A stretch of DNA of 64,000 bases from the NCBI GenBank assembly GCA_037439525.1, contig JBBIVW010000008.1:884-64883 (forward strand). Reading direction: 5' to 3'. The stretch comes from Anaerolineae bacterium (GTDB taxonomy: Bacteria; Chloroflexota; Anaerolineae; Anaerolineales; UBA4823). Positions 12,672 to 62,620 of the stretch are shown here, piece after piece (within the stretch, counting starts at the first letter, position 1; the number at the start of each line of letters is the position of its first letter). Made by a program: the position numbers and the translations under genes. The notes beneath the pieces are model-generated. The model searched no databases. It saw only the letters and a list, made by a program, of their open reading frames with translations, and was not told the origin of the DNA.

Positions 12672-12784
12672 TTCCAGTTCTGTTAGGTGAGGGCGGATTC
12701 CCTGATTAATGAATTACAATTGAGCCAATGCAGTGTGCTTGGCTAAACTATACCACAGCCAAGCTCAACAAACCGAGATACCCG

Positions 12785-27977: not shown

Positions 27978-28043
27978 GCTTTACTCTCCTTTTTATCTCT
28001 AAACTACCTCGAACCTCTTCTCAAGCCAGAAGTGCTCACCCAA

Positions 28044-30473
28044 TTAGTTCCTGAGCACTTTCCCGGTGTTAAGCAAGTTCCACATGCGCTCCTGCGTTTT
28101 TTGTTCACCACACAGGGATAGGAAGGCTTCGCGCTCTAAGTCCAGGAAGTATTGCTCTTCCATCCAGGCAGGTTGGCTTAGCTCTCCACCGGTAAGCACA
28201 CCAGCCAGCTTCCTCGCAATGTGCGCTTCATATTCGGTAATGTACTTGCCTTCCTTCATCATGTGAATACCTACTTTCATGGCTGCCAGAGCATCCCTAC
28301 CCGCCGCGTAAATCTTTTCGGGAAGGGGTGGGTGGTAGCCTGTAGTCGCCATGTGAAGCACTTCTTTCTTGGCTTCGCTGAGCAGGTAATCGCGATGCAT
28401 AACGATACGATCGCAGGGGCTCAAAATACCAAACTGCCTGGCTTCTTCGGCGCTGGTGGCTACCTTTCCCAAGCCTATCTGCTCAAACAGGCGTTGGAGC
28501 ACGGGGAGGGCTTCGACGTTTGGGGTGCGCATACAGGGATTGAGCACACGGCGCAACATCTCTTTCGTGCCACCGCCTGCCGGGATAACGCCTGCGCCTA
28601 CTTCCACCAAGCCCGCATAAAGTTCACCCGAAGCCACGACGCGGTTGCCGCTCATGATCACTTCCGCGCCACCTCCCAAAGCCATCCCCGCCGGAGCAAC
28701 CACGACGGGTTTGGGGAAATAGCGCACGCGCATGAGCATGTCTTGCATGTTCTTGACCATTGCTTCGAGTTGTTCCCATTGCCCACTTTGCGCGTTCATC
28801 ACCACCAAGAAGAGGTTAGCCCCAGCGCTAAAATGCTCCCCCTCGTTACCGATCACTAACCCAGCCCATTGGTTATCCGTTTCAACCAGATCCATGCCTT
28901 CCTGCAAGATGCTGAAAATGTCCACATCCAAGGCGTTCATCTTGGTGTGAAATTCCACACAGGCAACACCATCTCCCATATCAATCAAGTCTGCGCCTGC
29001 GTTCTTTTTGAGCACCTTGCCTGCGCTCTTCAACTCGTGCAGAAAGATCAGCGAAGGTGGGCGTTCAATAGGTTGATAATCGCCTTTCGTGGGGTTATAC
29101 ACCGCGACCCTGACGCCGTTCTTCACCAGATAGAAAGATTCCTTACCACGGGCAAGCATCTCCTCCACCCATGCTGCGGGTGGGAACCCCGCGGCTTTCA
29201 TCGCCTCCGCGGTTTCTTTCACGCCAAGCATGTCCCAGGTCTCGAACGGTCCTGCTTCGCGGCCAAAGCCCCAGCGCATGGCATCATCAATTGGCTTGGG
29301 GGTATCGGCAACTTCGGGAATGCACTCCGAAGCATACGCCAGGCTTTGATAGGTCAGTGCACGCACCAACTGACCTGCTCGATCCTCTGCAGCCAGAAGC
29401 ACCTTCAACCGCTCGCCAAGGTGTTCTTTGTCTTTTACTTTGCCGATAGACTCGAAACGCACCTTTTGGGGAGGGGTGTACTCCAAAGTTTGGAAGTTCA
29501 AAGCCCAAAATTCCTTGCTTCCGTCTTCGGTGCGCACCTCTTTATAAAAGCCCTCTTTGGTTTTATTACCTAACGAACCACGTTCGACCAACTTCCCAAT
29601 CAGGGCATTCACCCTTTCCGAGCGCAAATAGCGCAAGGCATGCTCATCATGAGGGATCGCCGGTTCCAGGTTCTTGCCCACATGATGCCAGACATCGATG
29701 CCCACCAGATCGATGAGGCGAAAAGTAGCTGTCTTCGGGTTGCCAATGGGGGGACCGGTGATGGCATCCACCTCTTCGACCGTATAACCCTGTTCGAGGA
29801 TGTAATCCAACGCAAAAGCAGCGCTGCCGAACGCCAAACGATTGGCAATGAAATTGGGTGTGTCCTTTGCCGGCACAATCCCCTTTCCCAGGCGGTATTC
29901 ACCGAACCAGCTAATGAAATCCACCACTTCGGGAAGCGTATCTGGTGTGGAGATGATTTCGAGCAGTTTAAGATAACGTGGGGGGTTGAAGAAATGCGTG
30001 CCTAAAAAGTGTTGGCGGAACCCCTCGGACATGCCCTGCGCGATCGACGCCACCGGAATACCCGAAGTATTGGTGGATACGATGGTATGAGGCTTGCGCA
30101 CCTGATCGATGCGGCTCATTAACTTGCGCTTGATTTCCAGGTTTTCGACAATCGCTTCGATCACCCAATCCGCTTCACCTACGGCGGAAAAGTCATCTTC
30201 CAGGTTTCCCGTCGAAACTAGAGAGGCGTGATCGGGGGTGAAAAAGCTCGCCGGGCGCGATTTCAAGGCGCGTTCCAAGCCCTGTTGGACAATGCGATTG
30301 CGCACCGCAGCATCTGCCAAACTCATCCCCTTGGCTTCTTCCTCTGAGGTAAGTTGGTTGGGGACAATATCAAGTAACGTCACGCGCACCCCAGCATTTG
30401 CCAGGTGAGCGGCGATAGCTGCACCCATCGTCCCTGCTCCGATGACCACTGCTTTATGTATTCGGTAATTCAT
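28044..30473 (-). CDS. fadN: 3-hydroxyacyl-CoA dehydrogenase / enoyl-CoA hydratase fusion (FadN-type domain order)
   Basis: N-terminal VIGAGTMGAAIAAHLA Rossmann fold and 3HCDH domains. C-terminal crotonase region ALGGGAEV. 809 aa. Confidence 0.9.
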   Translation of the reverse strand: MNYRIHKAVVIGAGTMGAAIAAHLANAGVRVTLLDIVPNQLTSEEEAKGMSLADAAVRNRIVQQGLERALKSRPASFFTPDHASLVSTGNLEDDFSAVGEADWVIEAIVENLEIKRKLMSRIDQVRKPHTIVSTNTSGIPVASIAQGMSEGFRQHFLGTHFFNPPRYLKLLEIISTPDTLPEVVDFISWFGEYRLGKGIVPAKDTPNFIANRLAFGSAAFALDYILEQGYTVEEVDAITGPPIGNPKTATFRLIDLVGIDVWHHVGKNLEPAIPHDEHALRYLRSERVNALIGKLVERGSLGNKTKEGFYKEVRTEDGSKEFWALNFQTLEYTPPQKVRFESIGKVKDKEHLGERLKVLLAAEDRAGQLVRALTYQSLAYASECIPEVADTPKPIDDAMRWGFGREAGPFETWDMLGVKETAEAMKAAGFPPAAWVEEMLARGKESFYLVKNGVRVAVYNPTKGDYQPIERPPSLIFLHELKSAGKVLKKNAGADLIDMGDGVACVEFHTKMNALDVDIFSILQEGMDLVETDNQWAGLVIGNEGEHFSAGANLFLVVMNAQSGQWEQLEAMVKNMQDMLMRVRYFPKPVVVAPAGMALGGGAEVIMSGNRVVASGELYAGLVEVGAGVIPAGGGTKEMLRRVLNPCMRTPNVEALPVLQRLFEQIGLGKVATSAEEARQFGILSPCDRIVMHRDYLLSEAKKEVLHMATTGYHPPLPEKIYAAGRDALAAMKVGIHMMKEGKYITEYEAHIARKLAGVLTGGELSQPAWMEEQYFLDLEREAFLSLCGEQKTQERMWNLLNTGKVLRN

Positions 30474-30812
30474 CTGGCCTCCTTATTGATCATGCTAATT
30501 TCTCACATCACTTGCCTATAAAGTCGAAGTTTCACCAGCTGTAACCAACCAGCAGGTACTCCATGCCATGGCGTAACAGCAAAAGCCAGCTTCTGGATAG
30601 AGACCTCTGGCCTCTATCCACTTCTGCCACACCAAAGTTGCTTCCTAACGGATTCCGCGCTCAGGCAAAAGCATTTGCCTCCGAGAAGCTCTCAAAAGGC
30701 AACCTACGAGTTCGTTATACAACCCCACAATACTGCTCTATTCGGGAGAACAACGCCCTCCAGCGTAAACCTTGCTTACATGAGATGAGTTCCGCCGAGG
30801 TATTAATGTGCC

Positions 30813-31706
30813 TTACTGTGGCACATACACCATGAAATCGTCGAAGAGCGCTTCATAGATATAGTTCCCTCGCGTGCCCACAGCCAGTCCCACGGAACCC
30901 GCAGAAAACTCCGTGTCCTGAACCGAAACCAGAAAATGTCCGTTGGCATACAAGGAAAGGGTAGCTCCAAGGCACTCTGCGACAATCGTATTCGGCATAG
31001 CTCCAGTATACACTCTCCCTGTAGTATCCTGTGCTTCATAGAGGAAAGCCAGGTTTCCAGCTTTTTGCTTGGCAATGCCATAGCGGCCATCTGAGCCTAC
31101 ATACAACAGGTAGTAGTTGCTCCCATTCATAAAGCGACACACTACACCGTAATACCCTTCAAATGGTCCGCTTACCCAACTGCCGGTGACCTGAATGCGC
31201 ACGTTGACAAAAGGCTGCCCATGCACGCTCCAAACAGCATCGTTCTCCACCTTATTGGTGATCTGATAGCCTCCCCGGGTAAAGCGGAACTCCACCTGGT
31301 CATACTTACCGGTTACCCAGCCTGAGCGGTACGAAAAATCGTCCGCTAAAGCCAGGACAAAGCCCGGCGTTGGGGAAGGAGTGCTGGTAGCCGTTTCGGT
31401 TGGCGTAGGGGTGTCAGTGGGAAGAGGGGTGTCCGTTGGCGTCGGCGTATCAGTAGGCGGGAGGGTGCTCGTGGGCGGAAATGTCTCGGTAGGAGAGGGG
31501 TATGCTTCAGGTGCCAGTGATTCCAGTGTATCGGTAGGGCTTGGCGCATTTAAGGTCAATTCCGCGACGATGGTTTGTGCCGCCTGGGTAAAGAGAGCAT
31601 TCAGGTCCTGCGTCGGTGCAGCCGCGGGGAACATCTGGCAACTCGTCAGCAGGAGCACCATAGTGCCGGCCAGAATACTAAGGGATGTACATTTTCGCGC
31701 CTTCAT
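30813..31706 (-). CDS. lipoprotein with Pro/Thr linker and jelly-roll (LamG/DUF1080-like) domain
   Basis: SD ggagagg precedes ATG 31706. Lipobox LLLTSC. Linker TPTPTDTPLPTDTPTPTETATSTPSPTP. The C-terminal beta-rich domain contains YYGVVCRFMNGSNYYLLYVGSDGRYG. Confidence 0.6.
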   Translation of the reverse strand: MKARKCTSLSILAGTMVLLLTSCQMFPAAAPTQDLNALFTQAAQTIVAELTLNAPSPTDTLESLAPEAYPSPTETFPPTSTLPPTDTPTPTDTPLPTDTPTPTETATSTPSPTPGFVLALADDFSYRSGWVTGKYDQVEFRFTRGGYQITNKVENDAVWSVHGQPFVNVRIQVTGSWVSGPFEGYYGVVCRFMNGSNYYLLYVGSDGRYGIAKQKAGNLAFLYEAQDTTGRVYTGAMPNTIVAECLGATLSLYANGHFLVSVQDTEFSAGSVGLAVGTRGNYIYEALFDDFMVYVPQ

Positions 31707-32100
31707 TTTTCCTCTCCTTCTCATCAGCTCTGATTTTCGCCTGACTCGCCTTCGTTCAGAATGGGGGTGCTTCGATTGCTCGAGGTAATCGTTGCTGCCC
31801 GACACGGCGGTCAGGACAAGTCCACGCATATAGTTTAACGAGCTTACCCATAAAGGTCAAGGTGCATCTGCTACGATGTAGAGCTGAGTGTTTTGCCTGC
31901 ACTACAACCTACGCTCGATAGAGCAGTCCGCACAGAATGAATCCCTTCTATATGGAGAGAGAAACCAGCAGATAAGCCCAGCGCGTTGCATTGAGGCGAA
32001 CTCGGATGTGGCGATGTTAAGGTGCAATAGAACTTCGAGCTGCCCGGAGATATGGCTCCTGAAACAGAGCCGGGGCATCAGCTCATGCGAACGTGGACGA

Positions 32101-33354
32101 CTAGCGTAATTCGCGCCCGGAATAACCTAGGACATTGCGTGCCACGATCAGGCGGTTGATTTGCCCTGTACCTTCGTAGATATCGGTGATCTTCGCATCG
32201 CGGAACCATTTCTCCAACAGATGATCACGCGAATATCCAATTGGTCCCATCAGCTCCACGGCGCGTTGGGTGATCTTGGTGACGACATCTCCCGCGCGCA
32301 CTTTTGCCATGGAGGCTTCCAGAGGGTTGGGCTTGCGATTATCTGCCATCCACACGGCTTTGATCACCAGTAACCAGGCAGAGCGAAGCATGACCTCCAT
32401 GTCTATGATTTCTCGCTCGATGTTGGTCAACTTCTGACGAGGCAAACCATAGCGGATCGTCACACCCTGTTGCGCTAATAGCTCTTTGAGCAGCTCCAAC
32501 GAGGCGCGGGCTACGCCAACACCGGTGGCAGCGACAAGCGGACGAGTAGCATCGAAGGTTGCCATGGCGCTCTTGAAGCCCTTTTTATCCTCCTGAGGCA
32601 CTACCTCGGGGCTGCCCAGCAAGTTTTCGAAAGGCACGCGCGCGTCTTGCAAAACAATTGACGCCGTGTCGCTGGCACGAATGCCCATTTTATGTTCCAG
32701 CTTAGTCACCTTGACGCCCGGAGTACCCGCTTCAACTACGAAAGAACGCATGCCAGCCCGGCCCGCCTTTGGGTCGATGGTTGCCCAGACGACGACAAAA
32801 CCATCGCTCAGCTCTAAAGATTTGTGCCCCGCGGTAACAAAGATCTTCTCCCCATTGAGGATCCACTCCTTTGTTTTGGGGTCCAATACCGCGGTGGTGC
32901 GGATGGCAGAAGTATCCGATCCCGCCTGAGGTTCGGTCATCGCCATAGCGCCAAATGTGGGCTTTTCTGCGGCGAAGCGCGCCAGGAACTTTTGCTTTTG
33001 TTCCGGCGTGCCCGAGGCTTCCACCGCGGCAGCCCCCAGCCCGCCCCCTGGGGTGCACAGGTACATGCCCACATCTCCCCAGCACAGCGTTTCCAACATA
33101 AACGCCAGTGACTGATAACCAATTGGCGGGCGTTTCTGTTCCTCTTCCCCTTCTTTGGGTTTTCTTTCCTTCGGGGCGAGCGAGCCCGCGCCCGTGGCGC
33201 GCATCGCCATGTGCATGAAGTTAATGTAATCCCAGGGGACTTCATGTTCGTGTTCATCGAAATACCGCGAAACCGGGCGCATCATGTTCTCCGCCACGGT
33301 CTTCAAGGCAACGCTTTGTTGTGCGATGGGTTTTGGGGGTTCAAACTCGATCAT
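32101..33354 (-). CDS. acyl-CoA dehydrogenase (catalytic Glu present)
   Basis: C-terminal RDAKITDIYEGTGQINRLIVAR carries the canonical YEGT catalytic base. 417 aa. Confidence 0.9.
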   Translation of the reverse strand: MIEFEPPKPIAQQSVALKTVAENMMRPVSRYFDEHEHEVPWDYINFMHMAMRATGAGSLAPKERKPKEGEEEQKRPPIGYQSLAFMLETLCWGDVGMYLCTPGGGLGAAAVEASGTPEQKQKFLARFAAEKPTFGAMAMTEPQAGSDTSAIRTTAVLDPKTKEWILNGEKIFVTAGHKSLELSDGFVVVWATIDPKAGRAGMRSFVVEAGTPGVKVTKLEHKMGIRASDTASIVLQDARVPFENLLGSPEVVPQEDKKGFKSAMATFDATRPLVAATGVGVARASLELLKELLAQQGVTIRYGLPRQKLTNIEREIIDMEVMLRSAWLLVIKAVWMADNRKPNPLEASMAKVRAGDVVTKITQRAVELMGPIGYSRDHLLEKWFRDAKITDIYEGTGQINRLIVARNVLGYSGRELR

Positions 33355-33398
33355 TTTCCATTCTCCACAAATGAATCACTCGCTTTTTATTCGACGCA

Positions 33399-34493
33399 TT
33401 AGACTATGGTCAATCCTGTAAACGTAGCAATGCCACGCCCATTGCGCATCCATAGTTCAACCGGATGCTCCCGAATGTAGCCGTGCCCGCCTAAAATCTG
33501 CACAGCGCGATCGGTGACCATCATCGCCATGTCGGTAGCGCCAGTAAGCGCCAGGTACGCCTGTTTGCTGGCTTCTTCCTTTCCTTGATCCAACATCCAG
33601 GCAGCTTCCCAGGTGAGCAGGCGGATGGCCTCGATTTCCGTAGCCATCTCGGCGAGCATAAACGCGATTGCCTGCTTCTGCGCCACTTTCACGCCAAAGA
33701 CCTCGCGCTCTTTGGCATAATCGCGCGCGTATTCGAACGCGGCACGCGAAACGCCAACTGCCATGGCAGCTAAGGCAACGCGCGAGGCATCCAGGATGGC
33801 AGCAAAGTCGTGTCCCTCTGCGCCTCCCAGGCGTGCCTCCTTAGGGACACGCACCTCGTTCAGGGTGAGCTTATAGAGTGGTAAGGCGTTCACTCCCATG
33901 AGCTTCGCGCGCGCCTCAACTTCCAAACCGGGCATGCCTTTTTCGACGATGAAGCCCTGCGTCTTCCCCGCCAGGCTGGCATACACCAACATGGCTTCTG
34001 CTTCAGGGGCAAAAGGTACGAAGGTCTTCTCCCCTGAGAGCATATACGCATCTCCATCTTCCACCGCTGTGGTGCGCAGCTCATGCGGGTCAAAGTCAAA
34101 ATATGGTTCGATGAATGCCGCGGTAAAAGGTTTCCACTGCGCTTCCACAATGCCTGGAAGGTATTTTTGCTTCTGCGCCTCGCTGCCCACCAGAGCAATG
34201 GGCATGGCAAATAAACCTGGGGTCAGGACAGCCATCGCCCCCGCCAGATCGCCATAGGCCATTTCCTCGGCCGCCAACACCCCGGTAACCGCAGATCGCT
34301 CGCCGAAGCCGCCATAATCCTCTGGGATAGAGGCTTGCAATAACCCCAATTCCCAGCCTTTTTCGATCAGCGGGCGAGGCCATTCCGCTTCTTCATCTGC
34401 GTCATGCGCTTTGAGGCGCAAATCGTTCAATGCATAGCGGTTCACGGCTTCGATCAACATTTTTTGCTCTTCCGACGGTTCGAAAGAATACAT
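33399..34493 (-). CDS. acyl-CoA dehydrogenase-fold protein lacking the canonical C-terminal catalytic Glu
   Basis: The ACAD fold runs throughout. The C-terminus reads MRNGRGIATFTGLTIV, where YEGT is expected (Glu replaced by Thr in my alignment). Confidence 0.85.
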   Translation of the reverse strand: MYSFEPSEEQKMLIEAVNRYALNDLRLKAHDADEEAEWPRPLIEKGWELGLLQASIPEDYGGFGERSAVTGVLAAEEMAYGDLAGAMAVLTPGLFAMPIALVGSEAQKQKYLPGIVEAQWKPFTAAFIEPYFDFDPHELRTTAVEDGDAYMLSGEKTFVPFAPEAEAMLVYASLAGKTQGFIVEKGMPGLEVEARAKLMGVNALPLYKLTLNEVRVPKEARLGGAEGHDFAAILDASRVALAAMAVGVSRAAFEYARDYAKEREVFGVKVAQKQAIAFMLAEMATEIEAIRLLTWEAAWMLDQGKEEASKQAYLALTGATDMAMMVTDRAVQILGGHGYIREHPVELWMRNGRGIATFTGLTIV

Positions 34494-34510
34494 ATGACAC
34501 TCTCCTTCCT

Positions 34511-35578
34511 CTAATTTCTTTTGAAAAGTGGTTTTTCTGCGGCACGGTAATAGATGGGCACACGCCCACGGCCGTTTTCGATATCGCCCAGGTTGTCGAT
34601 GGCGAGCCAGCCACGCTGGTGCAGATATTCCACGTGTGCACCGGCCTCTTCGAGGGCGAGCAAAACTTCATACCCATGTACTTCGCCAAACAAAGTGTGG
34701 GAAACCTCAGCTATGGTGTGCGCCTGCTGCAAGTAGTCGCTCACCGCGATCAATCGTTGGCGGTGCAGGTTTTGAATTTCTTCCAGCCTTGCAGCCAGGT
34801 CGGTGATAGGCTGGTTGTGGCCTCCTAAAGTCAGACGCACACCTTGCACCCAGCTCTTCAACTTCTCCAGGGACTCCAGGTAATGGCTCAGGCCAGTGTG
34901 ATGCGTCAGGCTTTCCGGCGCCTGATGCGGGCTAATCGCGGATAGAACATGGTCGCCGCTGAAAAGCAAGTCGTGCAGGCGGATGACCACATGGCCCGCA
35001 CAATGCCCAGGCACATGCAACATTTCAAAAGGTCCCAGACGCATACCTATAGTTTCATACGTGAAGTCCACACCTACCGAGCGATACATGCTTTTGAGTA
35101 GTTGATACATCTCAACCAGTTTGCGCGTACCCTCCGGAGACACTCCAGCTTCCAGTAAAAAAGCCTCTAATCGTTTTGCCACGACTACCACACGCTCTTC
35201 AAAGTTGGTTAGAACGCGCTGGTCGAGCTCATGCACGCCTACTTGTGCGGCGGAATGTTGGCGCAAAAAGGTGAGGCCGCCAAAGTGATCGATATGTCCA
35301 TGGGTGATCAGGATGTGGGTCAAATCGGAAAAGCTTAGCTTTCGCCCGAGAATCTCCGAGACATGTTGAAATCCCTCTTCAAGGTGTTGGTTGGAATCCC
35401 CTATCCCCGAGCCGGCATCGATCAAGACGCACATCTCGCCCAGGTGTGCATCTTGAACCAGCACAAGGTACACCCAGCCCCACAACCCGGGGAACTCTAA
35501 CACGGGGATTTGGAACACCTGTGCGTTTGCAGCACTGTAAAACACGTTGACTTGTGGAGACAGGGGTTGACTAAACAT
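34511..35578 (-). CDS. MBL-fold metallo-hydrolase
   Basis: ITHGHIDHFGG (HxHxDH). ATG 35578 overlaps the TetR stop by 8 nt. Confidence 0.8.
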   Translation of the reverse strand: MFSQPLSPQVNVFYSAANAQVFQIPVLEFPGLWGWVYLVLVQDAHLGEMCVLIDAGSGIGDSNQHLEEGFQHVSEILGRKLSFSDLTHILITHGHIDHFGGLTFLRQHSAAQVGVHELDQRVLTNFEERVVVVAKRLEAFLLEAGVSPEGTRKLVEMYQLLKSMYRSVGVDFTYETIGMRLGPFEMLHVPGHCAGHVVIRLHDLLFSGDHVLSAISPHQAPESLTHHTGLSHYLESLEKLKSWVQGVRLTLGGHNQPITDLAARLEEIQNLHRQRLIAVSDYLQQAHTIAEVSHTLFGEVHGYEVLLALEEAGAHVEYLHQRGWLAIDNLGDIENGRGRVPIYYRAAEKPLFKRN

Positions 35579-36152
35579 GCGCTGCTCCTGGGCGCGCCAA
35601 CAAACCAAAGAGGTACAGTTCGGCAATCTGATGCGCAATTTGAGTGGGCGAAAGTTGGCCCTCTGGACGGTACCATGTGATCGTCCAATTCAATGTGCCC
35701 AACAAAGCGCGCGAGATCAAGGACACATCCGCGCAGTTGAATATTCCCTGGCTCTTTCCCTCTAAAATCAAATCCCGCCACAAGCTCTCAAAGCGGTCCC
35801 TTCTTGGGATGTGGCGGGATCGAAACTCAGGCTCCAAAGAGCGGTGCTCCAGCAAAAGCACCGAGGCCAGGTCGCGGTGTTCCAGCATGGTCAGCAGATA
35901 CACCTCGATCGCCAGGCGCAGTTTATCATCCGGGGCGAGAGGCTGTTGCATCACATGGTGCATCTTTTCGATGAGCAAGTCCAGCGCCTGATCGAGTACC
36001 CCAACCAGGAGCTCTTGCTTGCTGGAGACGTGATGATACAGGCTGGCTTTTTGCAGGTTCACCGCCTGGGCAATATCCTGCATGGAAGTGCCATGGAAGC
36101 CCTTCTGGCTGAAGATTTGAGCAGCAGCTTCGAGGATTTCGTCGCGGGTCAT
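35571..36152 (-). CDS. TetR/AcrR-family regulator (FadR-like, heads the beta-oxidation cluster)
   Basis: N-terminal HTH FHGTSMQDIAQAVNLQKASLYHHVSSKQEL. 193 aa. Confidence 0.9.
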   Translation of the reverse strand: MTRDEILEAAAQIFSQKGFHGTSMQDIAQAVNLQKASLYHHVSSKQELLVGVLDQALDLLIEKMHHVMQQPLAPDDKLRLAIEVYLLTMLEHRDLASVLLLEHRSLEPEFRSRHIPRRDRFESLWRDLILEGKSQGIFNCADVSLISRALLGTLNWTITWYRPEGQLSPTQIAHQIAELYLFGLLARPGAAHV

Positions 36153-44731: not shown

Positions 44732-45334
44732 CTACGGCTTCTGACGCGCATAGTCCTGAGGGGTGTCTAGATCGGAAAGCACAGCCTCATCCTCAACATG
44801 CAGATAGTCGATATCCTGTGCGTGGCTATTGAGGAAGTCGCGCAAGTTTTGTGGAGGTTGCAGATGCAACAAATCATGCCAGAGCGAACGGTGTACCAGC
44901 CACGGATGACCGCGCCGCATGCGAAAGCTCGGCACCAGGATGGGTTTGCCAGATTGCCGAAAGGCTTCCATCAAATGCCGCACCAAAGCGGTATGGATTT
45001 GCGGTTGATCGCCCAAAGCGATGGCCAGCCCATCCGCTTCCTGGGGCAAAGCGCGCATCCCCACCTGCAGGGACAAAACCATCTCGTCTTGAAAATGCCA
45101 TGGGTTATACACCAACATAACAGAGAAGCCCTCCAAAGCTTTCTCTACCTGATGCCGATGAGCACCGGTGACCACTATAATGGGCGCGATGCCTGCTTGA
45201 TGCAGTACGCTGACCACCCGACCGATGACCGTGGTCTGCCCCCACGGCAGAACAAGCTTTGGCTGGCCCATCCGCCGTGAAGCTCCTGCAGCCAGGACGA
45301 TGCCCGCGATGTGAGGCTCAATTTGGCTCATCAT
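44732..45334 (-). CDS. mocA: MobA/MocA-like molybdenum cofactor nucleotidyltransferase
   Basis: GIVLAAGASRRMGQPKLVLPW and the DQP motif LGDQPQI. The start overlaps the upstream gene by 17 nt. Confidence 0.8.
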   Translation of the reverse strand: MMSQIEPHIAGIVLAAGASRRMGQPKLVLPWGQTTVIGRVVSVLHQAGIAPIIVVTGAHRHQVEKALEGFSVMLVYNPWHFQDEMVLSLQVGMRALPQEADGLAIALGDQPQIHTALVRHLMEAFRQSGKPILVPSFRMRRGHPWLVHRSLWHDLLHLQPPQNLRDFLNSHAQDIDYLHVEDEAVLSDLDTPQDYARQKP

Positions 45335-46697
45335 ACGCTACTTCCAGCAAGCGCTGATATTCTTCAGGCGTATCCACATCGATGTTCAGGCGCGAGTCGT
45401 TCCAGGGCACAAAGCTCAATGGATAATGGGAGAACAAAGCCCTGCCTCCCTGGTCTCCCTGAAGCTGGCGTAAATCCGAAAAAGTGCTTCGATCAAAGAG
45501 CACAGGATTGCCACGCGCACCCTGAACGAGAGGGGCAATAATGGGCGCCAAAGTGCAGGCATGCGCATCGAGCAGTGCATCGATGAGCTGTGCGGTGACC
45601 ATGGGCTGATCGGCAAGCAAGAAAACCGCCGCTCCGATATTATCCTGCAGTGCCTCCAAGCCGAGGCGAATTGATGTGCTCTGACCAGCTTGCCAGTCTG
45701 GATTGTATACATGCTGCACATCCAGCCCTAGCAGAGCTTGTGCCACCTCTTCTGAAGCGCAGCCGGTGACGACCACGAGACTCGCAAGGCGCGAGGCCCG
45801 CGCGGCTTCAGCGACGTGGCGCACCAGCGGTTTGCCCTGCCACAACAGCGTTTGCTTGGGCCTGCCCATGCGCGCCGAACCCCCCGCTGCCAGGAGAATG
45901 CCCGCCACCTTTTCGTGCACCTGTAGAACTTCGTCGGCGTTCTCACGTTCGGTCTTCAAGTCTGCAATGAGCGCCGCATCGAAGTGTTTCAATAGGGCAA
46001 AGCACATCTCTCGCGCTTGGGCTTGCAATGTGAGGTCACCTGCCTGATTGAAGAGCACGATGCGGCGCGCTTGTGGTGGGATCGCTTTCAACCCCCCTTC
46101 CGCATGGCTGAGGACACCCACCAAAGCCTCAGGGTTGATCGTATCTCCCATCCTCAAGCCGCTCAAGCGAGAAAACATTTCGGGGCGATGAACGAACTCT
46201 TCGTGCAGAGGCTTACCCAAGCCCCTCAAGCCAGCCAGAAGGATAACGACATCGATCCATGTGGGTATGGCCGGCTCATGTTCTGCCGGCGCTTTGAGCG
46301 GTTTGCGTCGTGCGCCATCCGCTTCAACAAGAAAAGGGAGGCTAAATTTCAAAGCCCAATCCCTGAGCTCCTGCAACACAGAGGGGGGCAAACCAGCCGC
46401 GCGTTGATCTTCTCCAACTTCACCAGTAAACAGCATCACCCCCATAGGAGGGTGACTGATCCAATCAGACAGATCCTCAAAGCGGCGCAAAATCTTGTAA
46501 TGGTCGCTCAAGGCTAATTGTTCTTGGCATAAATGCGTGCTGGCACTTAGTACCACCCCTGGAAAGGATCGAACGCCGGTTTCTGATTTACGGGTCAATT
46601 CCCGCGCCAGCCGGAACATTGCCGTTGTCTTTCCTCCCGCGCCGACAAATGCCATGCTTAACGGTTTCTCTACACGCAAAGCCTGGGCAAGGTTCAT
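45318..46697 (-). CDS. fusion of a YqeC-type selenium-dependent hydroxylase accessory domain and a MocA-like nucleotidyltransferase domain
   Basis: N-terminal P-loop-like FVGAGGKTTAMFRLAREL matches the YqeC family style. The C-terminal half has GILLAAGGSARMGRPKQTLLW and LADQPMV. ATG 46697 lies 1 nt beyond the upstream stop. Confidence 0.7.
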   Translation of the reverse strand: MNLAQALRVEKPLSMAFVGAGGKTTAMFRLARELTRKSETGVRSFPGVVLSASTHLCQEQLALSDHYKILRRFEDLSDWISHPPMGVMLFTGEVGEDQRAAGLPPSVLQELRDWALKFSLPFLVEADGARRKPLKAPAEHEPAIPTWIDVVILLAGLRGLGKPLHEEFVHRPEMFSRLSGLRMGDTINPEALVGVLSHAEGGLKAIPPQARRIVLFNQAGDLTLQAQAREMCFALLKHFDAALIADLKTERENADEVLQVHEKVAGILLAAGGSARMGRPKQTLLWQGKPLVRHVAEAARASRLASLVVVTGCASEEVAQALLGLDVQHVYNPDWQAGQSTSIRLGLEALQDNIGAAVFLLADQPMVTAQLIDALLDAHACTLAPIIAPLVQGARGNPVLFDRSTFSDLRQLQGDQGGRALFSHYPLSFVPWNDSRLNIDVDTPEEYQRLLEVAYDEPN

Positions 46698-46698
46698 G

Positions 46699-47544
46699 CT
46701 ACTTCCATAAGAGCGGGCGCAACTGTTCCACCGAGAGGATGGCTTCCAGGACCCCTCCACCGATGGCCAGCGACTTATCCGAGATCAAGAAACAATACCG
46801 GGGGTCATTACGTGGGTCAACATCCGCGATTTTCAAGCCCTTTTGCACGCATACACCTGAGTGCATCACCCCTCGCAAAACTCCAGAGATGGCTGCGCAC
46901 GCCACCTCCCCATTCACCTCGGCGATGACCTGACCTTTCTCTAGATGATCTCCGATTTCTGCGCACGCGTGCAATACGCCATCTGCCGGAGCGCGCACCA
47001 CGCGTTGGGCGTCAATGCCCAATACCCTGTCGGGAATCGAGGTATCCGCTTCTGGTTCACCCTGCCAAAGCACGCGCCCCAGGTGGTGTCCGCGGTTCGT
47101 CTCTATGGCTACATGGCAATTCACACCGGCTATAAACCCAGGCCCCAAACCAATGACCAGTTCAACGGTGTTCCGTGCATCGGAGACAAACTTCTTCTGC
47201 ATGCGTGCATCCACAAGCACCAAGCGCGTTTCGGGAGACCTCGCTTTAAATTCGGAAACCAGCCTGGCTTCCGGATCGATAAGCACGGGAATGACCCCGC
47301 GCGGCAAAGCCTCAAGTACCGCCGAGAATTCTTGGGTCAACTCCGCAGTGACATTTTCCACGGTCACGCGCCCGGCATAGATTGCCTCTGCAAAAGACAC
47401 TTTACGACGCACTACCAATGGTTGGGGTAACTCGGTGATGACCGTTGGAATGCCTGCGCGAACCAGGCGGAAGGCCACCCCGCTTGCCAGGTCTCCCCCT
47501 CCTCGCAGGATCACGCATAACTTTGGTCGACGGAGCCGAGGCAT
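46699..47544 (-). CDS. YqeB/EF2563-type selenium-dependent molybdenum hydroxylase system protein (XdhC-C-like Rossmann)
   Basis: VILRGGGDLASGVAFRLVRAGIPTVITELPQPLVVRRKVSFAEAIYAG resembles the TIGR03309 family as I remember it. 281 aa. Confidence 0.7.
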   Translation of the reverse strand: MPRLRRPKLCVILRGGGDLASGVAFRLVRAGIPTVITELPQPLVVRRKVSFAEAIYAGRVTVENVTAELTQEFSAVLEALPRGVIPVLIDPEARLVSEFKARSPETRLVLVDARMQKKFVSDARNTVELVIGLGPGFIAGVNCHVAIETNRGHHLGRVLWQGEPEADTSIPDRVLGIDAQRVVRAPADGVLHACAEIGDHLEKGQVIAEVNGEVACAAISGVLRGVMHSGVCVQKGLKIADVDPRNDPRYCFLISDKSLAIGGGVLEAILSVEQLRPLLWK

Positions 47545-47553
47545 ACAGTGTGG

Positions 47554-49788
47554 TTAGGTCAGCTTCCCCAACCCGCGCAGCACACGCTCTGGAATAAGAG
47601 GGAATTCGTCAAACCATATACCCACCGCGTCATGCATGGCTGCCATGATTGCCGGCACGAGGGGTAAGAAGGGCATCTCACCCATGCCTCGCGCTCCCCA
47701 TGGGCCACGCGGGTCTGCATATTCCAAAATAATAGGCTGCACGCGTTCTGGCACATCTAAAACGGTGGGGATGAGGTAGGTCGAGAGGTGCTGCGTTTCG
47801 ACAATGCCGTTCCGCTGGATGAAATGCTCCATAATTCCATATCCAGCAGCCTGAACTACAGCTCCTTCGATTTGGCCCTCTACCTGCTGTGGGTTGACCG
47901 CACGCCCAACATCGTTTGCCGATGTGACATCCAGCAGGCGCACGACCCCTGTTTCGGTGTCCACCTCTACCAATACGGCTTGAGCGACATAACCATAAGC
48001 AAAATTGGGTTCACACTTTCCAGTTTGAGGGTCGTATGGTGTCGTGCTCGGGGGGCGGTACTGGTATGTGGCCACTGCAGGCCGCTCTTCGGCCCTCCAT
48101 TTTTCTAGCGCCGCCTGCACCGCGCCTTTGACTGCGTTGCCGGCCATAAAAGTCATGCGTGAGGCGGACACACTTCCCGAATTATCGGTTTTTGCCGTAT
48201 CGGCAACGATCAATTCCACCTTATCCATGCTCACACCGGCGGCTTCGGCAGCCATTTGGGCAATCACGGTATGCGCTCCCTGACCGACTTCTGCAGCCGC
48301 GTGGCGAATGACCAGGCGGTCAATCTCTGCGCCGCCATATAACTCAGCCGTTGCCCAACATTGCTCGGGAAAGCCAAAAGAGAAGCCCACGTTTTTATAA
48401 CCTGCGGCAAACCCAATGCCACGCCGAATGTGCGCGGGAGTCTCTTCTTGGAGACGCTTGAACAATCCCTGATTTGACGAAGGTCTCCAGCCTTGCTGCG
48501 TTGTTTCCCAACCGGCCGCACGTGCACAATTCTCGACCACTTGCGCCAGGCTCACTCCTGGTGGGAGTGGCGTGCCCACAGAAAGCAAAGCCCCTTCGCG
48601 CAAAACGTTCCTCTTACGTAATTCAACTGGATCCATCCCCAGGGCATGCGCCAGCTTGTTCATTTGCATTTCAGCCGCAAACAGCCCCTGTGGTCCCCCA
48701 AACCCCCGGAAAGCCCCGGCAGGGATGTTGTTTGTATATACAGCATACGAGTCCACCTTGACGTTGGGAATCTCATACGGGCCAGTGCACACCAACGTGG
48801 CATTGCCCAAAACCTTTGTCGAAGTATAGGCATAGGCGCCACCATCGGCGATGACTTCCATCTCTGCCGCGAGCAGCTTTCCCTGGCGCGTTGCCCCCCA
48901 CTTAGCGCGTATGATGTACGCATGTCGCTTATGGTGGCCAATGATCGATTCTTCGCGACTCCAGATGATCTTTACCGGGCGCGAAATACCCCTTTGATGC
49001 AATCGCCAAGCGGCCAGAGCCAGAACGATCTGGATGGACATATCTTCTCGTCCTCCAAATGCGCCGCCCACTGCGGGGTAAATCACGCGCACCTGGTCTA
49101 AGGGCAGATTCAAAGCATGGGCGATTTGTTTCTGGTCCTCATGCGCCCACTGGCCGCCCACAATGACCGCAACGCGCCCTTCTTCATCGATATACCCCAA
49201 GCCCGCCTCGGGTTGTAAATAAGCATGCTCCTGCCACGGGGTGCGATATTCCCCTTCAACAATGACCTCTGCCTGCGCAAAGGCATTATGCACATCCCCT
49301 TTGCGGATGCGGTAGTGCACCAGTACATTCGAATCTCGATCGGGGTGAAGCAAAGGTGCATCCGGGCGCATGCTCTCCAACGGATCGGTGACTACCGGAA
49401 GGTCTTCATAGGTTACCTCGATCAAATCGCGCGCCTGCGCGGCGATTTCTTCACTCTCGGCGACCACCAGCGCCACCTGGTCACCCACAAAGCGCACCCG
49501 GTCGGCGAAAGGCTTGCTCGACCCAGGCCCACACAAGACGGGCTGATCGGGCATAATCAACCCATATTCGTTCTGGGGTACATCCCTGGCAGTGAAGATG
49601 GCCAATACTCCTTCCAACGCTTCAGCTTTCGAGGTATCGAGGCGCACAACGCGCGCGTGCGGTCGATGCGCAAAGAGGATTTTCATATAAGCCTGGTTGG
49701 GGAGATTGATATCCCCGGGGAATAGTGCCTCTCCTTTTACTTTCGCCAGCGCGTCCACGCGCCTTACCGATTCTCCGACGACAGCCAT
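47554..49788 (-). CDS. xanthine dehydrogenase/aldehyde oxidase-family molybdopterin-binding large subunit
   Basis: 744 aa. The N-terminal a/b-hammerhead start is [27 protein letters not shown] and the C-terminal ARGMGEMP (catalytic Glu) are present. There is no N-terminal 2Fe-2S domain. Confidence 0.9.
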
Positions 49789-49824
49789 GTCCTACTCCTA
49801 TTGCGAAGTTCCATTCCTGTTTCT

Positions 49825-49853
49825 ATTATACTCCGAGGAGCGTTCTATCTCCA
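49825..49853 (-). promoter_or_regulatory. candidate sigma70 promoter TGGAGA-17-TATAAT for the Mo-hydroxylase operon
   Basis: On the minus strand, TATAAT is at 49830-49825 and TGGAGA at 49853-49848. SD aggag precedes ATG 49788. Confidence 0.5.
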
Positions 49854-58788: not shown

Positions 58789-60437
58789 GTGCTTAAAACT
58801 AACAGGTTATGCCTTTTCATTCTGACAGCATTGATAGTGGCAGCTATATGTACCGGCTCTAACGGGGGGGAGATTTAAACACTTTAGCCTCCTCTCTGGA
58901 CAGTCTAGTTGCTAGCGAGGTGGTCTTCACCATTCCGCTTGGAGACCAGGGTATCCATTATGAAGGGCAAGACAACCCTGAGATGTTGACGTGGGGACCA
59001 CCCGCTTTCACCATCGCGCCGGATAGGACTTTCTGGATTGCAGATACAGCGGATGACCATATCCTTCAATTCGACAATAAGGGAGCCTTGCTTGGCAAGA
59101 TCGACACCAGCGAGTTTATGGTTGGCGCGGGTGATATTGCCCTCACCTCCAGGGAAATATGGCTCCTGGATATGGCTTCAATTCCACCGAAACTGGCTCG
59201 CCTATCCCTGGATAGAAAAATCCTAAACACCTACGATTTGCCCACGGGTTTGCACCTGGAAGACGGGTTGAGCGACATTGCCCTGGGAGGAGATGGCAGC
59301 CTGCTCATCGAACGCATGGGAGGTCATGCCCTCACGCAATTCATTTCTCCAAACGGAGAAGTGGAACAAAAACCCCTTGAAGGTTACGAATTCTATGGCA
59401 GGGTGTATGCCGCCCATCCCGCCAGCCTGAGCCAGAAAGAAGCCTCACGCGGAACCATTCAGGCGGGAGAGATACGCATTGACGTAGAAGTGACCAACGC
59501 TTTGGGAGGTCTGCGCATCCTGCATGTCTTCCCGGATGGCAGTTTCCTGGTGGAAGTCGTAGAATTGGTTTTGGACACGGCTTTTCGGGTGGATCAGAAA
59601 GTCTTTCACTATGACTCCGCTGGCAACCTGCTGGGTATGGCGCGTATCCCACTGGCGTCACAATACGTGCCTGTCGCGCATAGCATTGCGGTTAGTCCGG
59701 AGGGCGAAGTATACACGCTGATCACCCGTCCAGACGGCGGCGAAATCCAGAGGTTGGTCTTTTACCCTGATCTTCCACCCATCTTATCTCCACCTGATGG
59801 TGTAGAACAGCCGGAACAATCCCCGACGTTGCCCCTCTCACCGCAAACATGCCGCTCGCGCGAAGCCATCATCGCTGTGGCGTCGGAATACCTGAACAAT
59901 TCAACTTACCTGGATGCCTATCATATCAGTGACAATGCGGCGTGTTCAGGGCGCGTGAAACCGCGCTATTTGGGCAGCCCAGGCGTCTATAACTGCGTAC
60001 CATACGCCTGGAATCTTTGGGAGACGGTGGAGCAATTCAATGGCTTCATGAGCGGGGGCTACAACGGCTATTTCGCTGGCAATATCAGTGAGACCTACCT
60101 GAGCTGCGCGCGCGGCATCGATTGCTCAGGTCTGGTCAGCAGAGCCTGGGGTTTGAGCAGCCACTATGGAACCTGCTCACTGGAAACCATCTCTTCCGAG
60201 CTTCCTAATAGATACATGTTGCAGCCTGGGGATATTATGAATCGGTACGATTGGCCCGACCGACATGCAATAATCTTTCACAACTTCTCAGGTGATGGAA
60301 TGTTCGGCTATGAAGCTACAACTTACTTAATTACGACAGAGTTGTGCGGATTTATCGCTCATTTGCAAGTATTGAATCAATCTATATTCGTCGAAGATAC
60401 AATGAAGTGTGTAGAAAAATCCATCTGCCTCTCATAA
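58789..60437 (+). pseudogene. secreted beta-propeller-like + NlpC/P60-like protein, split between signal peptide and body at a G7 tract (phase-variable, PRF or sequencing error)
   Basis: SD plus GTG 58789 encodes VLKTNRLCLFILTALIVAAICTGSNGG and then stops at 58876-78. The body (ORF 58920..60437) is open from 58863 in the -1 frame. C-terminal GIDCSGLVSRAWGL and PGDIM...HAIIF resemble NlpC/P60. Confidence 0.6.
58864..58870 (+). repeat. G7 homopolymer at the frame junction
   Basis: aacGGGGGGGagattt. One extra G (or two fewer) fuses the two frames. Confidence 0.95.
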
Positions 60438-60621
60438 TAAAATCTGATATAGAGATATGGTCTGCCTATCCATAATCGAACCCTTACCCGCCCCCGGATG
60501 ATAATACATTGACGAGTTCTCAATCACTACCATACCCTTATCCATATCCATAGGCAGCAGAGCCATATTTTTCTTGTACAGTCAGTGCCTTTCGGACAAC
60601 AAGATATTTTTGACAGGTAAA

Positions 60622-61780
60622 ATGATGATAAAAACTATTCGTTACTTGACACTCATAATTCTACTTCTCTCCTCTTGTCGAATAAAGGATGATGCTTTCT
60701 TCCAATCGTCAAAGTCGTCTCAAGGATTATCATCTACTCCGACACATGCGATTATCCCTGCAACTCTTACAACTTTATCTTCGAGTCAAACAATGTCCTC
60801 TACAGCTATTCCATCTCCTACATTCACTCTAACAGAGACGCCATCTATCACGAGCCAACTATTCATTCACGAACAACCTGGAGGCATTTACGAAACAATA
60901 TTTAGCTTTCCGGTAGGAGAGAATAGCATCATAGAATATGCTAGATATCCTGGCACAATCGATGGACCTAATGCAATTGCTGTGCTGCCCGATGGCAGTT
61001 TTTTTAATAGCAGATCTTGCCGCCTGGCGACTCCTACAATTCAACCGTGCAGGTCGCTTATTGATCCTCGTCGAACTGGGAGCAATGGGGATAAAAACAG
61101 TTTCAGATATACGTGTAAAAAGAAATTATGTGTTTTTACTTCAAATTTTCTACGAAAATTATGCGGTCCATCAAATGACCCTGGATTACAAGCTCATTGC
61201 CAGCCATAAAATTCCACACCGCTTTCCAATTGGTGAAGAGGGTCTTACTATCGAAAACGGCATTAGTGGAATCGCCATCGACTGCGAATGACGGATTATC
61301 CTGGAAGTAGAGGGCGGCTCGAAGTTGTTCCCGCTGTCGGAGGTTCAACGACTAACCGATCCTGACCTGATTACCCAGGGCTGGCTGTGTCTTGACAAAC
61401 GCTACTTCGTAAGCACGCCAGGTCTGTGGAAGCATCCCCAGGTCACTGTGGGTGAAGCAATCTACCAAACCCGATTATCTGAGGGTCTTGGCGGTCTCAG
61501 GTTTCTGGAGGTGCTTCCGGATGGGAGTTTTTATTTGTTGAGAAGCGATGTAATGCCAATTACACCTATAAAAGTTGATCAGACTATCCATTACGTCGAT
61601 CGAAATGGTGTTGTCCAGGGTATGGCACGCATTCCATCATCCGAATTCTTTTACCCACCCAATCGTAATGCAGCCATCGGGCCAGATGGAGAGGTCTATG
61701 TCCTGCTGCCCAGGCGCGATTCAATCGACATCGTGCGTTTGATTTTTTATAAAGAATTAGAAGCGCTCATCCCTGGCGCG
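60622..61780 (+). pseudogene. divergent paralog of 58789..60437, degraded (T7 frameshift, in-frame TGA, C-terminal domain missing)
   Basis: Lipoprotein signal MMIKTIRYLTLIILLLSSC. Homology to paralog 1 continues across three ORF-track pieces (60574.., 60938.., 61325..). The 3' end is approximate. Confidence 0.6.
60999..61005 (+). repeat. T7 homopolymer at the frameshift site of the paralog
   Basis: ggcagTTTTTTTaatag. T6 would read ...LPDGSFLIADLAAWRLLQF..., matching ...APDRTFWIADTADDHILQF... in paralog 1. Confidence 0.9.
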
Positions 61781-61837
61781 GTAATCCCACACATTGAGCG
61801 CCAGAATCCACAATACCGCGAGATGAACCCGAGGATT

Positions 61838-62620
61838 TCAATCTCTTTGGTTGAGCACCGCCTCTACAATTCGAGGGATGATCTCCTCCACAGCAGCATG
61901 AAAGACGAGGTCAGCGCGCACGTCGATGTAGGTCGGCGTGTGGTTGATGAGGATGAGGTGCGCCCCGTTCTCGATGGCGCGCATCGGCAGGCCTGCCACC
62001 GGCAAGACCTCCAACGATGATCCTGCTACCAGCATTAAATCGCATTCCTTGCTGGCTTTTTGTGCCATAAGCCAGGTGCGCACCGGCAATTGCTCGCCGA
62101 ACAAAACCAAATCGGGTTTTAGGATGCCACTACACTCAGGGCAATGAGGCATCTCTCCCTGTTCCAGAAATGAGGGCATAAAAGGTTTCGATTCATATTG
62201 GGCATAACAGCGAATGCAGGTCATCGTCTCCCAGGTGCCATGCACCTCCAGGACGTTATTAGAGCCGGCTTTTTGGTGTAAGGTATCGATGTTCTGTGTG
62301 ATCAGCGTTTGAAAGTATCCAGCCTGCTGCAGGCGCGCCAGCCCAATATGCGCCGCGTTAGGCTGAGCAGCGAATATGGTATGCGCCATGGGTTGAATCC
62401 AGCGAAAGAATCTCTCCGGCGCATAGCGAAAAGCAGAAAGCGAAGCAACCTCAAAAGGATCCACTTTCGTCCACAACCCACCTTCCGAGGAACGAAAGTC
62501 CGGGATGCCGGAAGCCGTGGAAATGCCTGCGCCGGTCAATACCACGCCCTTGTGGCTGCTGCGTATCAAGTCTGCGGCGCATTGGATGTCGGTGATCAAC
62601 GCTTGAGATCGTTCAACCAT
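61838..62620 (-). CDS. cobB: NAD-dependent protein deacylase (Sir2/CobB)
   Basis: GAGISTASGIPDFRS, TQNIDTLH, Zn ribbon CIRC...CPEC, and VAGSSLEV. Confidence 0.9.
   Translation of the reverse strand: MVERSQALITDIQCAADLIRSSHKGVVLTGAGISTASGIPDFRSSEGGLWTKVDPFEVASLSAFRYAPERFFRWIQPMAHTIFAAQPNAAHIGLARLQQAGYFQTLITQNIDTLHQKAGSNNVLEVHGTWETMTCIRCYAQYESKPFMPSFLEQGEMPHCPECSGILKPDLVLFGEQLPVRTWLMAQKASKECDLMLVAGSSLEVLPVAGLPMRAIENGAHLILINHTPTYIDVRADLVFHAAVEEIIPRIVEAVLNQRD

Follow-up and report, generated by a model that had tools for sequence, protein, structure and literature searches.

The 64,000-nucleotide stretch of Anaerolineae contig JBBIVW010000008.1 analysed here (hereafter the window) carries on its minus strand, at 44732-49853, four tightly packed open reading frames (ORFs) which the ORF calls on this 64-kb sequence place in a single operon. 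These encode the molybdenum (Mo) subunit of a xanthine dehydrogenase (XDH)-family hydroxylase, a YqeB-type maturation protein, a fusion of YqeC with a MocA-like nucleotidyltransferase (YqeC~MocA, its transferase domain termed MocA1) and a second, stand-alone MocA-like protein (MocA2). Comparison with related sequences suggests that the window very probably holds the Mo-subunit and maturation half of an Anaerolineae-wide gene cluster for a two-protein hydroxylase, the other half of which would lie elsewhere in the genome, separated by fragmentation of the cluster. The electron-transfer partner, a fusion of FAD-binding and iron-sulfur (FeS) domains (FAD~FeS), is probably encoded elsewhere in the same genome. 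Fragmentation is favoured over an enzyme that works without a partner because in most relatives with enough flank the partner gene adjoins the Mo gene or lies near it, and in two others it has moved on the same contig.

Orthologous loci numbered at least 552 in a species-representative genome set, in the Anaerolineae, and 80 of these were examined, with Mo subunits showing 67-77% identity to that of the window. The best 120 matches in the protein database are 74-79% identical. Taxa bearing orthologues include Thermanaerothrix daxensis, T. solaris, Anaerolinea thermophila, Levilinea and Bellilinea, with the Mo orthologue of an A. thermophila metagenome-assembled genome (MAG; locus L058) showing 71% identity. 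Altogether 83 orthologous loci were annotated using the window proteins and reference proteins, and the upstream partner was counted in the 50 loci (49 orthologous loci and the window) whose upstream flank extends for 9 kb or more. In 27 of these 50 loci the Mo gene has a FAD~[2Fe-2S] fusion gene no more than 2.5 kb upstream of it, and in another eight such a gene is found 2.5-10 kb upstream, making it adjacent or nearby in 35 altogether, while it was not seen in the upstream flanks of the remaining 15, the window among them. The partner is a protein of approximately 480 aa with the domains PF00941, PF03450, PF00111 and PF01799 in that order, and its arrangement with FAD first and [2Fe-2S] last can be seen at L012:2635-4086, L032:8165-9589 and L086:8001-9440. 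In relatives xdhC usually precedes the FAD~FeS gene and a small membrane-protein gene usually comes after it, the conserved order of the cluster being xdhC, FAD~FeS, the small membrane-protein gene (in some cases accompanied by DUF6909), Mo, yqeB, yqeC~mocA and mocA2.

Two relatives in which the Mo gene appears to be without a partner were followed along their contigs. Locus L033 has no partner within 10 kb; it shares a 735,692-bp contig with L086, and on this contig the FAD~FeS gene (P0298) is located at 319,108-320,547, approximately 16 kb upstream of the Mo gene, which starts at 336,307. Similarly, no FeS or FAD gene is present within 10 kb on either side of the L087 operon, which has the gene order Mo, YqeB, YqeC~MocA, MocA2, response regulator, ThpR and RsfS and matches that of the window, including the downstream thpR and rsfS genes. 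L087 lies on a 276,079-bp contig together with L090, where a FAD~FeS gene (P0272), xdhC and the small membrane-protein gene are found at 229,316, some 81 kb from the L087 Mo operon at 146,446. In three further loci (L049, L057 and L063) DUF6909 fragments occur approximately 8 kb upstream of the Mo gene, which suggests that their partner gene sits just past the flank that was retrieved. A single origin of the split state was sought with a neighbour-joining tree of the Mo subunits and was set aside, the tree being star-like and poorly resolved. All that it shows is that a displaced or absent partner is associated with thpR-rsfS synteny downstream, as is also present in the window.

The sequence of the window Mo subunit shows no sign of a changed role. 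Among 42 partner-adjacent orthologues, 251 alignment columns were at least 97% conserved, and there is a match to the window protein in every one of these, compared with a leave-one-out mean of 0.986 for the adjacent group; this measure is of the whole protein and does not single out interface residues. As loss of the partner would predict drift, at least at the docking surface, this speaks for an unchanged constraint on the Mo subunit.

A number of other features of these loci were observed. In L002, L003, L008, L022 and L073 the Mo gene has no FAD~FeS, yqeB, yqeC or mocA gene within approximately 10 kb on either side, and fragmentation in these is further advanced than in the window. Between the FAD~FeS and Mo genes of many loci there is a gene for a conserved protein of approximately 125 aa that is apparently membrane-embedded (L032:9586-9966 and L012:4079-4453 being examples), often followed by one for a DUF6909 protein of approximately 570 aa (e.g., L012:4516-6222). 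It is possible that these serve as a membrane anchor or electron acceptor; no copy of either was found in the window by tblastn at E ≤ 1. Most full clusters also have a second hydroxylase a few kb upstream, in which a ygfM-like FAD protein is paired with an xdhD-like FeS~Mo fusion of approximately 1000 aa (L032:3524-7338, L086:2705-5713); this hydroxylase has no copy in the window. Given this position, the yqeB, yqeC and mocA genes may serve two enzymes. The contig of L044 (JAIWHF010000001.1), labelled 'Methanosarcinales archaeon', also holds an Anaerolineae-type cluster in complete form, its Mo subunit showing 69% identity to that of the window, although this label is probably a binning error of the MAG and the cluster not an archaeal homologue.

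The domains PF01315 (hammerhead), PF02738 (MoCoBD_1) and PF20256 (MoCoBD_2), as well as the catalytic Glu, that mark XDH-family Mo subunits are all present in the 744-aa protein. The hammerhead domain starts at residue 19 by Pfam profile, bearing out a first-pass annotation of this DNA, made from its sequence, in which the subunit was described as beginning directly with that domain. In an NCBIfam profile search the highest match was to PucD (TIGR03196, 594 bits against a cutoff of 783.65), with Se_dep_XDH (TIGR03311, 466 bits against 830.45) and XdhA (NF043082, 455.9 bits against 780) also matched, and no equivalog cutoff was reached. As the match to TIGR03311 does not begin until model position 161, the window protein lacks the FeS domain that this family has at its N-terminus. 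The nearest solved structure by sequence is that of the selenium (Se)-dependent nicotinate dehydrogenase (NDH) of E. barkeri (3HRD, E = 2e-89).

The catalytic residue is E704, which aligns with the Glu in the GVGELP motif of MOP and with the position of bovine E1261. Together with the motifs that contact the molybdenum cofactor (Moco), it aligns with NDH, 4-hydroxybenzoyl-CoA reductase (4-HBCR) and MOP. Equivalents of bovine Q767 (Q213), E802 (E248), R912 (R361) and F914 (F363) are retained, while the position of bovine R880 is occupied by N329, with Asn also present in two aligned orthologues, those of Thermanaerothrix and Anaerolinea. The bovine numbering in this alignment was anchored on a fragment of bovine XDH, and it reproduces the positions of L873, S876, R880, R912, F914, F1009, T1010 and E1261, with the known inhibitor-contact residues. 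The R880 equivalent is needed for xanthine turnover in bovine and Rhodobacter capsulatus XDH, and its replacement by Asn would allow for a substrate other than xanthine.

Neighbouring genes were considered as a guide to the substrate, an approach that was dropped with genes of purine pathways being essentially absent around the 83 loci. No counterparts of E. coli ygeW, ygeX, ygeY, hyuA, yqeA, ygfK, xanQ or the other pathway genes tested were found flanking these loci, the exceptions being an SsnA-like gene in L020, which also gives a weak GuaD-like match, and a weak SsnA-like match in L069. From its sequence the Mo subunit possibly acts on some N-heterocycle or purine-like compound, for which xanthine is possible but not favoured. 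Certain orthologues (P0059 and P0106) are named 'selenium-dependent xanthine dehydrogenase' by NCBI, and the enzyme could accordingly be viewed as an ordinary member of that group used in purine salvage or catabolism, with PucD and Se_dep_XDH as its two best NCBIfam matches and the equivalents of bovine E802, R912, F914, Q767 and E1261 conserved. Nevertheless, this view is considered rather unlikely, as the equivalog cutoffs are missed widely (594 against 783, 466 against 830 and 456 against 780 bits), the R880 equivalent is Asn329 both in the window and in the two aligned Anaerolineae orthologues, and purine-catabolic neighbours are lacking.

With regard to selenium, the markers described for Se-dependent molybdenum hydroxylases (SDMHs), namely YqeB and a co-occurring YqeC above their trusted cutoffs (Haft and Self, 2008, and Zhang et al.), were both found. 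The YqeB protein scores 306.1 bits against TIGR03309 (cutoff 220) with the full model covered, E. coli YqeB recovers the window yqeB gene by tblastn with 210 bits, and the protein has no Pfam match. The YqeC domain, encoded next to yqeB, scores 155.1 bits against TIGR03172 (cutoff 73.05) and 113 bits against PF19842. The first-pass annotation had proposed these two assignments, to be withdrawn if either protein fell below its hidden Markov model cutoff, and neither does; TIGR03172, PF19842 and PF12804 likewise confirm the fusion of YqeC to a MocA-like nucleotidyltransferase and the separate MocA-like gene that follows. In the fusion protein YqeC occupies the N-terminal 250 residues and the transferase domain the C-terminal 200. 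MocA1 and MocA2 match PF12804 with 125.6 and 130 bits respectively, and TIGR03310 with 159.4 and 148 bits, both below its equivalog cutoff of 186.45. Both transferase domains possess the LAAGxSxRMG and DQP motifs (reading LLAAGGSARMG and ADQP in MocA1), and the top NCBIfam match of MocA2 is to the N-terminal half of the DVU_1551 family.

Haft and Self (2008) found TIGR03309 in no genomes other than selD-positive ones. In C. difficile the Se-dependent use of purines requires YqeB; yqeB and selD mutants share the same defect in purine utilization and a yqeC mutant has none (PMC11448449). Anaerolinea thermophila UNI-1 has been tabulated as SelD+, SelA+, SelB+, YbbB-, YqeB+ and YqeC+ (PMC5029168 Table S1), and the Se-cofactor trait has therefore already been catalogued for the Anaerolineae. 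It could still be argued that YqeB and YqeC are general maturation factors of Moco or of its molybdopterin cytosine dinucleotide form (MCD), that the enzyme carries the usual terminal sulfido ligand, and that the link with Se is a mere correlation. Deletion of yqeC in C. difficile has no phenotype (PMC11448449), either YqeB or YqeC may, on its own, take part in processes independent of Se (Peng et al.), the fusion of YqeC to a cytidylyltransferase points to a Moco-nucleotide step that need not involve Se, an XdhC-type sulfuration chaperone belongs to the conserved cluster of relatives, and no selD was detected with E. coli SelD by tblastn in the stretches of approximately 20 kb around the 83 loci, or in the window. 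Such a sulfur enzyme is nevertheless regarded as improbable given the restriction of TIGR03309 to selD-positive genomes, the phenotype that YqeB and SelD deletions share, the presence of SelD alongside YqeB and YqeC in Anaerolinea thermophila, and a nearest solved homolog that is a Mo-Se nicotinate dehydrogenase.

The window itself contains no 2Fe-2S, FAD-subunit, XdhC or SelD gene, as judged by motif scan and by tblastn with E. coli XdhB, XdhC, YgfM, the N-terminal part of XdhD and SelD. When the Anaerolineae FAD~FeS, XdhC, small membrane and DUF6909 proteins were used as tblastn queries at E ≤ 1, only noise was returned, with no remnants of these genes. The absence of CoxS-like and CoxM-like genes in or beside the operon, reported in the first-pass annotation, thus holds for the entire 64 kb, and "lone" is correct as a description of the window. 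A dedicated [2Fe-2S] module encoded with or fused to the Mo subunit, as is usual for an XDH-family holoenzyme, is missing from the window and present across the orthologous family.

Several points weigh against a Se-dependent hydroxylase whose gene cluster has been split. No partner-like genes occur in the 64 kb, which includes 14 kb upstream of the Mo gene, and that the window's own genome carries selD, xdhC and the FAD~FeS partner is inferred. The classical genes of anaerobic purine catabolism are missing from the flanks of orthologous loci, leaving aside the SsnA-like gene in two of them, and the failure of the Mo subunit to reach any NCBIfam equivalog cutoff gives no substrate assignment. 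In addition, no active-site feature separates Se from S enzymes (bioRxiv 10.1101/2025.04.24.650524), so to speak of Se dependence for the window enzyme is to argue from comparative genomics. That the FAD~FeS protein has truly been lost, with the Mo subunit handing electrons directly to a soluble or membrane acceptor, would agree with the 64 kb free of FeS and FAD genes, the 15 of 50 loci without a partner within at least 9 kb upstream and the five loci in which the Mo gene is entirely solitary, but it is very improbable, since each of the two lone-looking relatives that were looked up has its partner elsewhere on its contig, at a distance of 16 kb and 81 kb respectively, retention of 251 of 251 conserved positions shows no relaxed or altered constraint, orthologue identity is 67-77% irrespective of partner adjacency, and no XDH-family enzyme is known to work without an FeS module.

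The first-pass annotation had put forward an uncharacterized Se-dependent hydroxylase of unusual architecture. The SDMH marker set and 3HRD as nearest structure favour the former part; the latter, an architecture without dedicated electron-transfer subunits, is not supported, with FAD~FeS near the Mo gene in 35 of 50 loci, displaced by 16 and 81 kb in two lone-looking relatives, and every conserved position of the Mo subunit kept.

In the split-cluster reading, two proteins would make up the holoenzyme, namely the 744-aa Mo subunit and a fusion of FAD and [2Fe-2S] domains. The ancestral layout would have been the cluster from xdhC to mocA2, often with the second hydroxylase (ygfM-like and xdhD-like) further upstream, and insertions and rearrangements may then have split its halves in the lineage of the window, the block from Mo to mocA2 staying here and the block with xdhC, FAD~FeS and the small membrane-protein gene being expected elsewhere in the genome. 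From what is known of their family, MocA1 and MocA2 would convert Mo-molybdopterin to the cytidine dinucleotide cofactor. YqeB, probably with the help of YqeC, would install labile Se from SelD-derived selenium, as suggested by C. difficile genetics and phylogenetic profiling. The mature Mo subunit would then dock on FAD~FeS and electrons would leave Mo for an acceptor by way of two [2Fe-2S] clusters and then FAD, as is typical for this family.

The joining of YqeC and MocA in one polypeptide was initially taken to be an unusual feature of this locus, but a survey of relatives shows otherwise. Among the best 120 homologs of the 459-aa protein all 120 possess both PF19842 and PF12804, and the fusion is present in 41 of the 57 loci with enough downstream flank, 25 of these having YqeB and MocA2, 14 having YqeB without MocA2 and two having MocA2 without YqeB. 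The YqeC~MocA fusion is thus class-wide and the usual form in the Anaerolineae. Triple YqeC~MocA1~MocA2 fusions also exist, in four protein clusters, where the second domain is orthologous to MocA1 and the third to MocA2. In L058 (the A. thermophila MAG) and L050 (Levilinea sp.), mocA2 directly follows yqeB (at approximately 12240-13670) with no yqeC~mocA1 within 10 kb; as the published table scores A. thermophila as YqeC+, its yqeC must sit elsewhere in the genome. The yqeC gene adjoins mocA/ygfJ in E. coli and H. marismortui and is near it in C. difficile (Haft and Self, 2008; PMC11448449). A search of the literature available turned up no discussion of a YqeC-MocA fusion, nor of XDH and selenium in the Anaerolineae.

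An alignment of 50 homologs shows invariant YqeC columns in the Walker A motif (G19, G21, G22, K23), the EADG motif (E125, D127), K135-A136-P137, E141-P142, H170-R171 and Q218-A219. The AlphaFold2 model of the domain has a predicted local distance difference test score of 96. A Foldseek search of the PDB with this model gave no match at E ≤ 0.001, with weak similarity to the generic P-loop NTPases MipZ, ParA and Rab, and a phmmer search of the PDB with the domain returned nothing meaningful. A MobB-like adaptor was considered as an identity for YqeC and rejected: hhalign against E. coli MobB gave a probability of 2.8% over 29 columns around the P-loop, MobB was outside the top 50 Foldseek matches, and Pfam at E ≤ 10 yielded the YqeC family only. 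Any kinship of YqeC~MocA with MobA/MobB stands as a functional analogy only.

That YqeC and MocA are covalently joined, in some cases as a triple fusion, argues for placing YqeC at the MCD-forming step. In a Rosetta-stone interpretation, offered tentatively and with more doubt than confidence, such fusions would signal that what the cytidylyltransferase makes is a direct substrate of YqeC, which would carry out Se insertion or another nucleoside triphosphate-dependent finishing step on MCD in a channelled YqeC-MocA complex before handover to the apo-hydroxylase. If true, YqeC would gain a concrete and testable biochemical position, and the lead concerns a protein whose deletion had no clear phenotype in C. 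difficile.

The E. coli ygf/yqe, E. faecalis EF2563-EF2570 and C. difficile SDMH loci are like the window in having an XDH-family Mo enzyme clustered with TIGR03309, TIGR03172 and MocA-type (YgfJ) genes (Haft and Self, 2008; Johnstone and Self, 2024). The window differs from these in having YqeC and MocA in one polypeptide along with a second MocA paralog, in its short YqeB without an XdhC domain, and in the lack of nearby selD, purine-catabolic genes or a redox-partner gene. E. barkeri NDH (NdhF, NdhS, NdhL, NdhM; Mo-Se site in 3HRD) has its Mo subunit split, NdhL aligning to residues 3-423 (E = 2e-89) and NdhM to residues 559-738 (E = 2e-44) of what is one chain in the window. Both possess the FRGFG motif along with the Gln and the catalytic Glu, while the bovine E802 position is Glu in the window and Leu in NDH, and the R880 position Asn and Arg respectively. 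The FAD and FeS moieties are separate subunits in NDH but fused, FAD then FeS, in the Anaerolineae partner.

The Anaerolineae family has the same two-protein layout with a chaperone gene as the XDH of R. capsulatus (XdhA with FeS and FAD, XdhB with Mo, and the chaperone XdhC). Rhodobacter-type XdhA and eukaryotic XDH have the order FeS then FAD, which is reversed in the Anaerolineae partner (FAD, then Fer2 and Fer2_2). Other differences from the R. capsulatus enzyme are the missing R880 equivalent, the presence of Se-type accessory genes and, in the window, the unlinking of the two genes. The MobA/MobB fusions (NF011056, NF011059), in which a Moco guanylyltransferase is joined to a P-loop adaptor, likewise combine a MobA fold with a small P-loop protein, although by analogy only; in YqeC~MocA the P-loop part comes first and homology to MobB is not detectable beyond the P-loop. 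MobB is genetically dispensable in model organisms. The same can be said of YqeC in C. difficile (PMC11448449).

A Mo hydroxylase in a MAG window that appears to be without its other subunits can therefore reflect cluster fragmentation, which is common in Chloroflexota, and a genome-wide search for the partner should precede any claim of a new architecture. The family is large (at least 552 loci) and highly conserved, and Thermanaerothrix daxensis, T. solaris and Anaerolinea thermophila, which are in culture, could be used for studying how the labile-Se Mo cofactor is matured.

The features of the operon and its neighbours are listed in Table 1. Spacings along the operon, from the Mo gene through yqeB and yqeC~mocA to mocA2, are 9 nt, 1 nt and an overlap of 17 nt, confirming the tight four-gene minus-strand arrangement proposed initially. 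The N-terminus of the fusion protein, MNLAQALRV, fits the consensus MxLxxALRL of 50 homologs, which supports its ATG start. The promoter sequence named in the first-pass annotation is present as claimed, within the 84 nt that separate the Mo gene from the LPG_synthase_TM gene upstream. Promoter-consensus sites in the region number six compared with 5.3 expected from shuffles, showing no enrichment, and with a site count at the level of chance this candidate is plausible only by its position. The flanking flippase-like membrane gene and thpR of that annotation correspond to LPG_synthase_TM upstream and ThpR/LigT downstream.

Table 1. Features of the Mo-hydroxylase operon and adjoining genes in the window.
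Feature	Position	Strand	Basis or remark
Candidate sigma-70-like promoter, TGGAGA-17-TATAAT	49825-49853	-	10 of 12 consensus matches; judged by position
Shine-Dalgarno-like GGAG	49795-49798	-	6 nt before the Mo-gene ATG; read off the sequence
Mo subunit, XDH-family hydroxylase large subunit, Mo-cofactor-binding, 744 aa	47554-49788	-	PF01315, PF02738, PF20256
YqeB-type Se-dependent Mo-cofactor maturation protein, 281 aa, short form without XdhC domain	46699-47544	-	TIGR03309
YqeC~MocA fusion gene, 459 aa counted from ATG	45318-46697	-	TIGR03172, PF19842, PF12804
YqeC domain of the fusion, P-loop, Walker A GAGGKTT, invariant EADG...KAP...EP	45948-46697	-	TIGR03172, PF19842
MocA1, MocA-like nucleotidyltransferase domain of the fusion	45318-45935 (boundary approximate)	-	PF12804, residues 266-424
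MocA2, second stand-alone MocA-like nucleotidyltransferase, 200 aa	44732-45334	-	PF12804; overlaps the fusion gene by 17 nt
LPG_synthase_TM membrane-protein gene	Upstream neighbour of the operon		
ThpR/LigT, RsfS, metallo-beta-lactamase-fold protein and 4HBT thioesterase genes	Downstream neighbours of the operon		

Elsewhere in the window, at 26781-36152 on the minus strand, the N-termini of the ORFs resemble a thiolase, an 809-aa 3-hydroxyacyl-CoA dehydrogenase fusion, two acyl-CoA dehydrogenases and a TetR regulator, and the ORF list suggests a fatty-acid beta-oxidation cluster here. The G+C content is 0.45-0.47 at positions 1-2000 and 60001-62000, compared with approximately 0.53-0.56 in the rest of the window.

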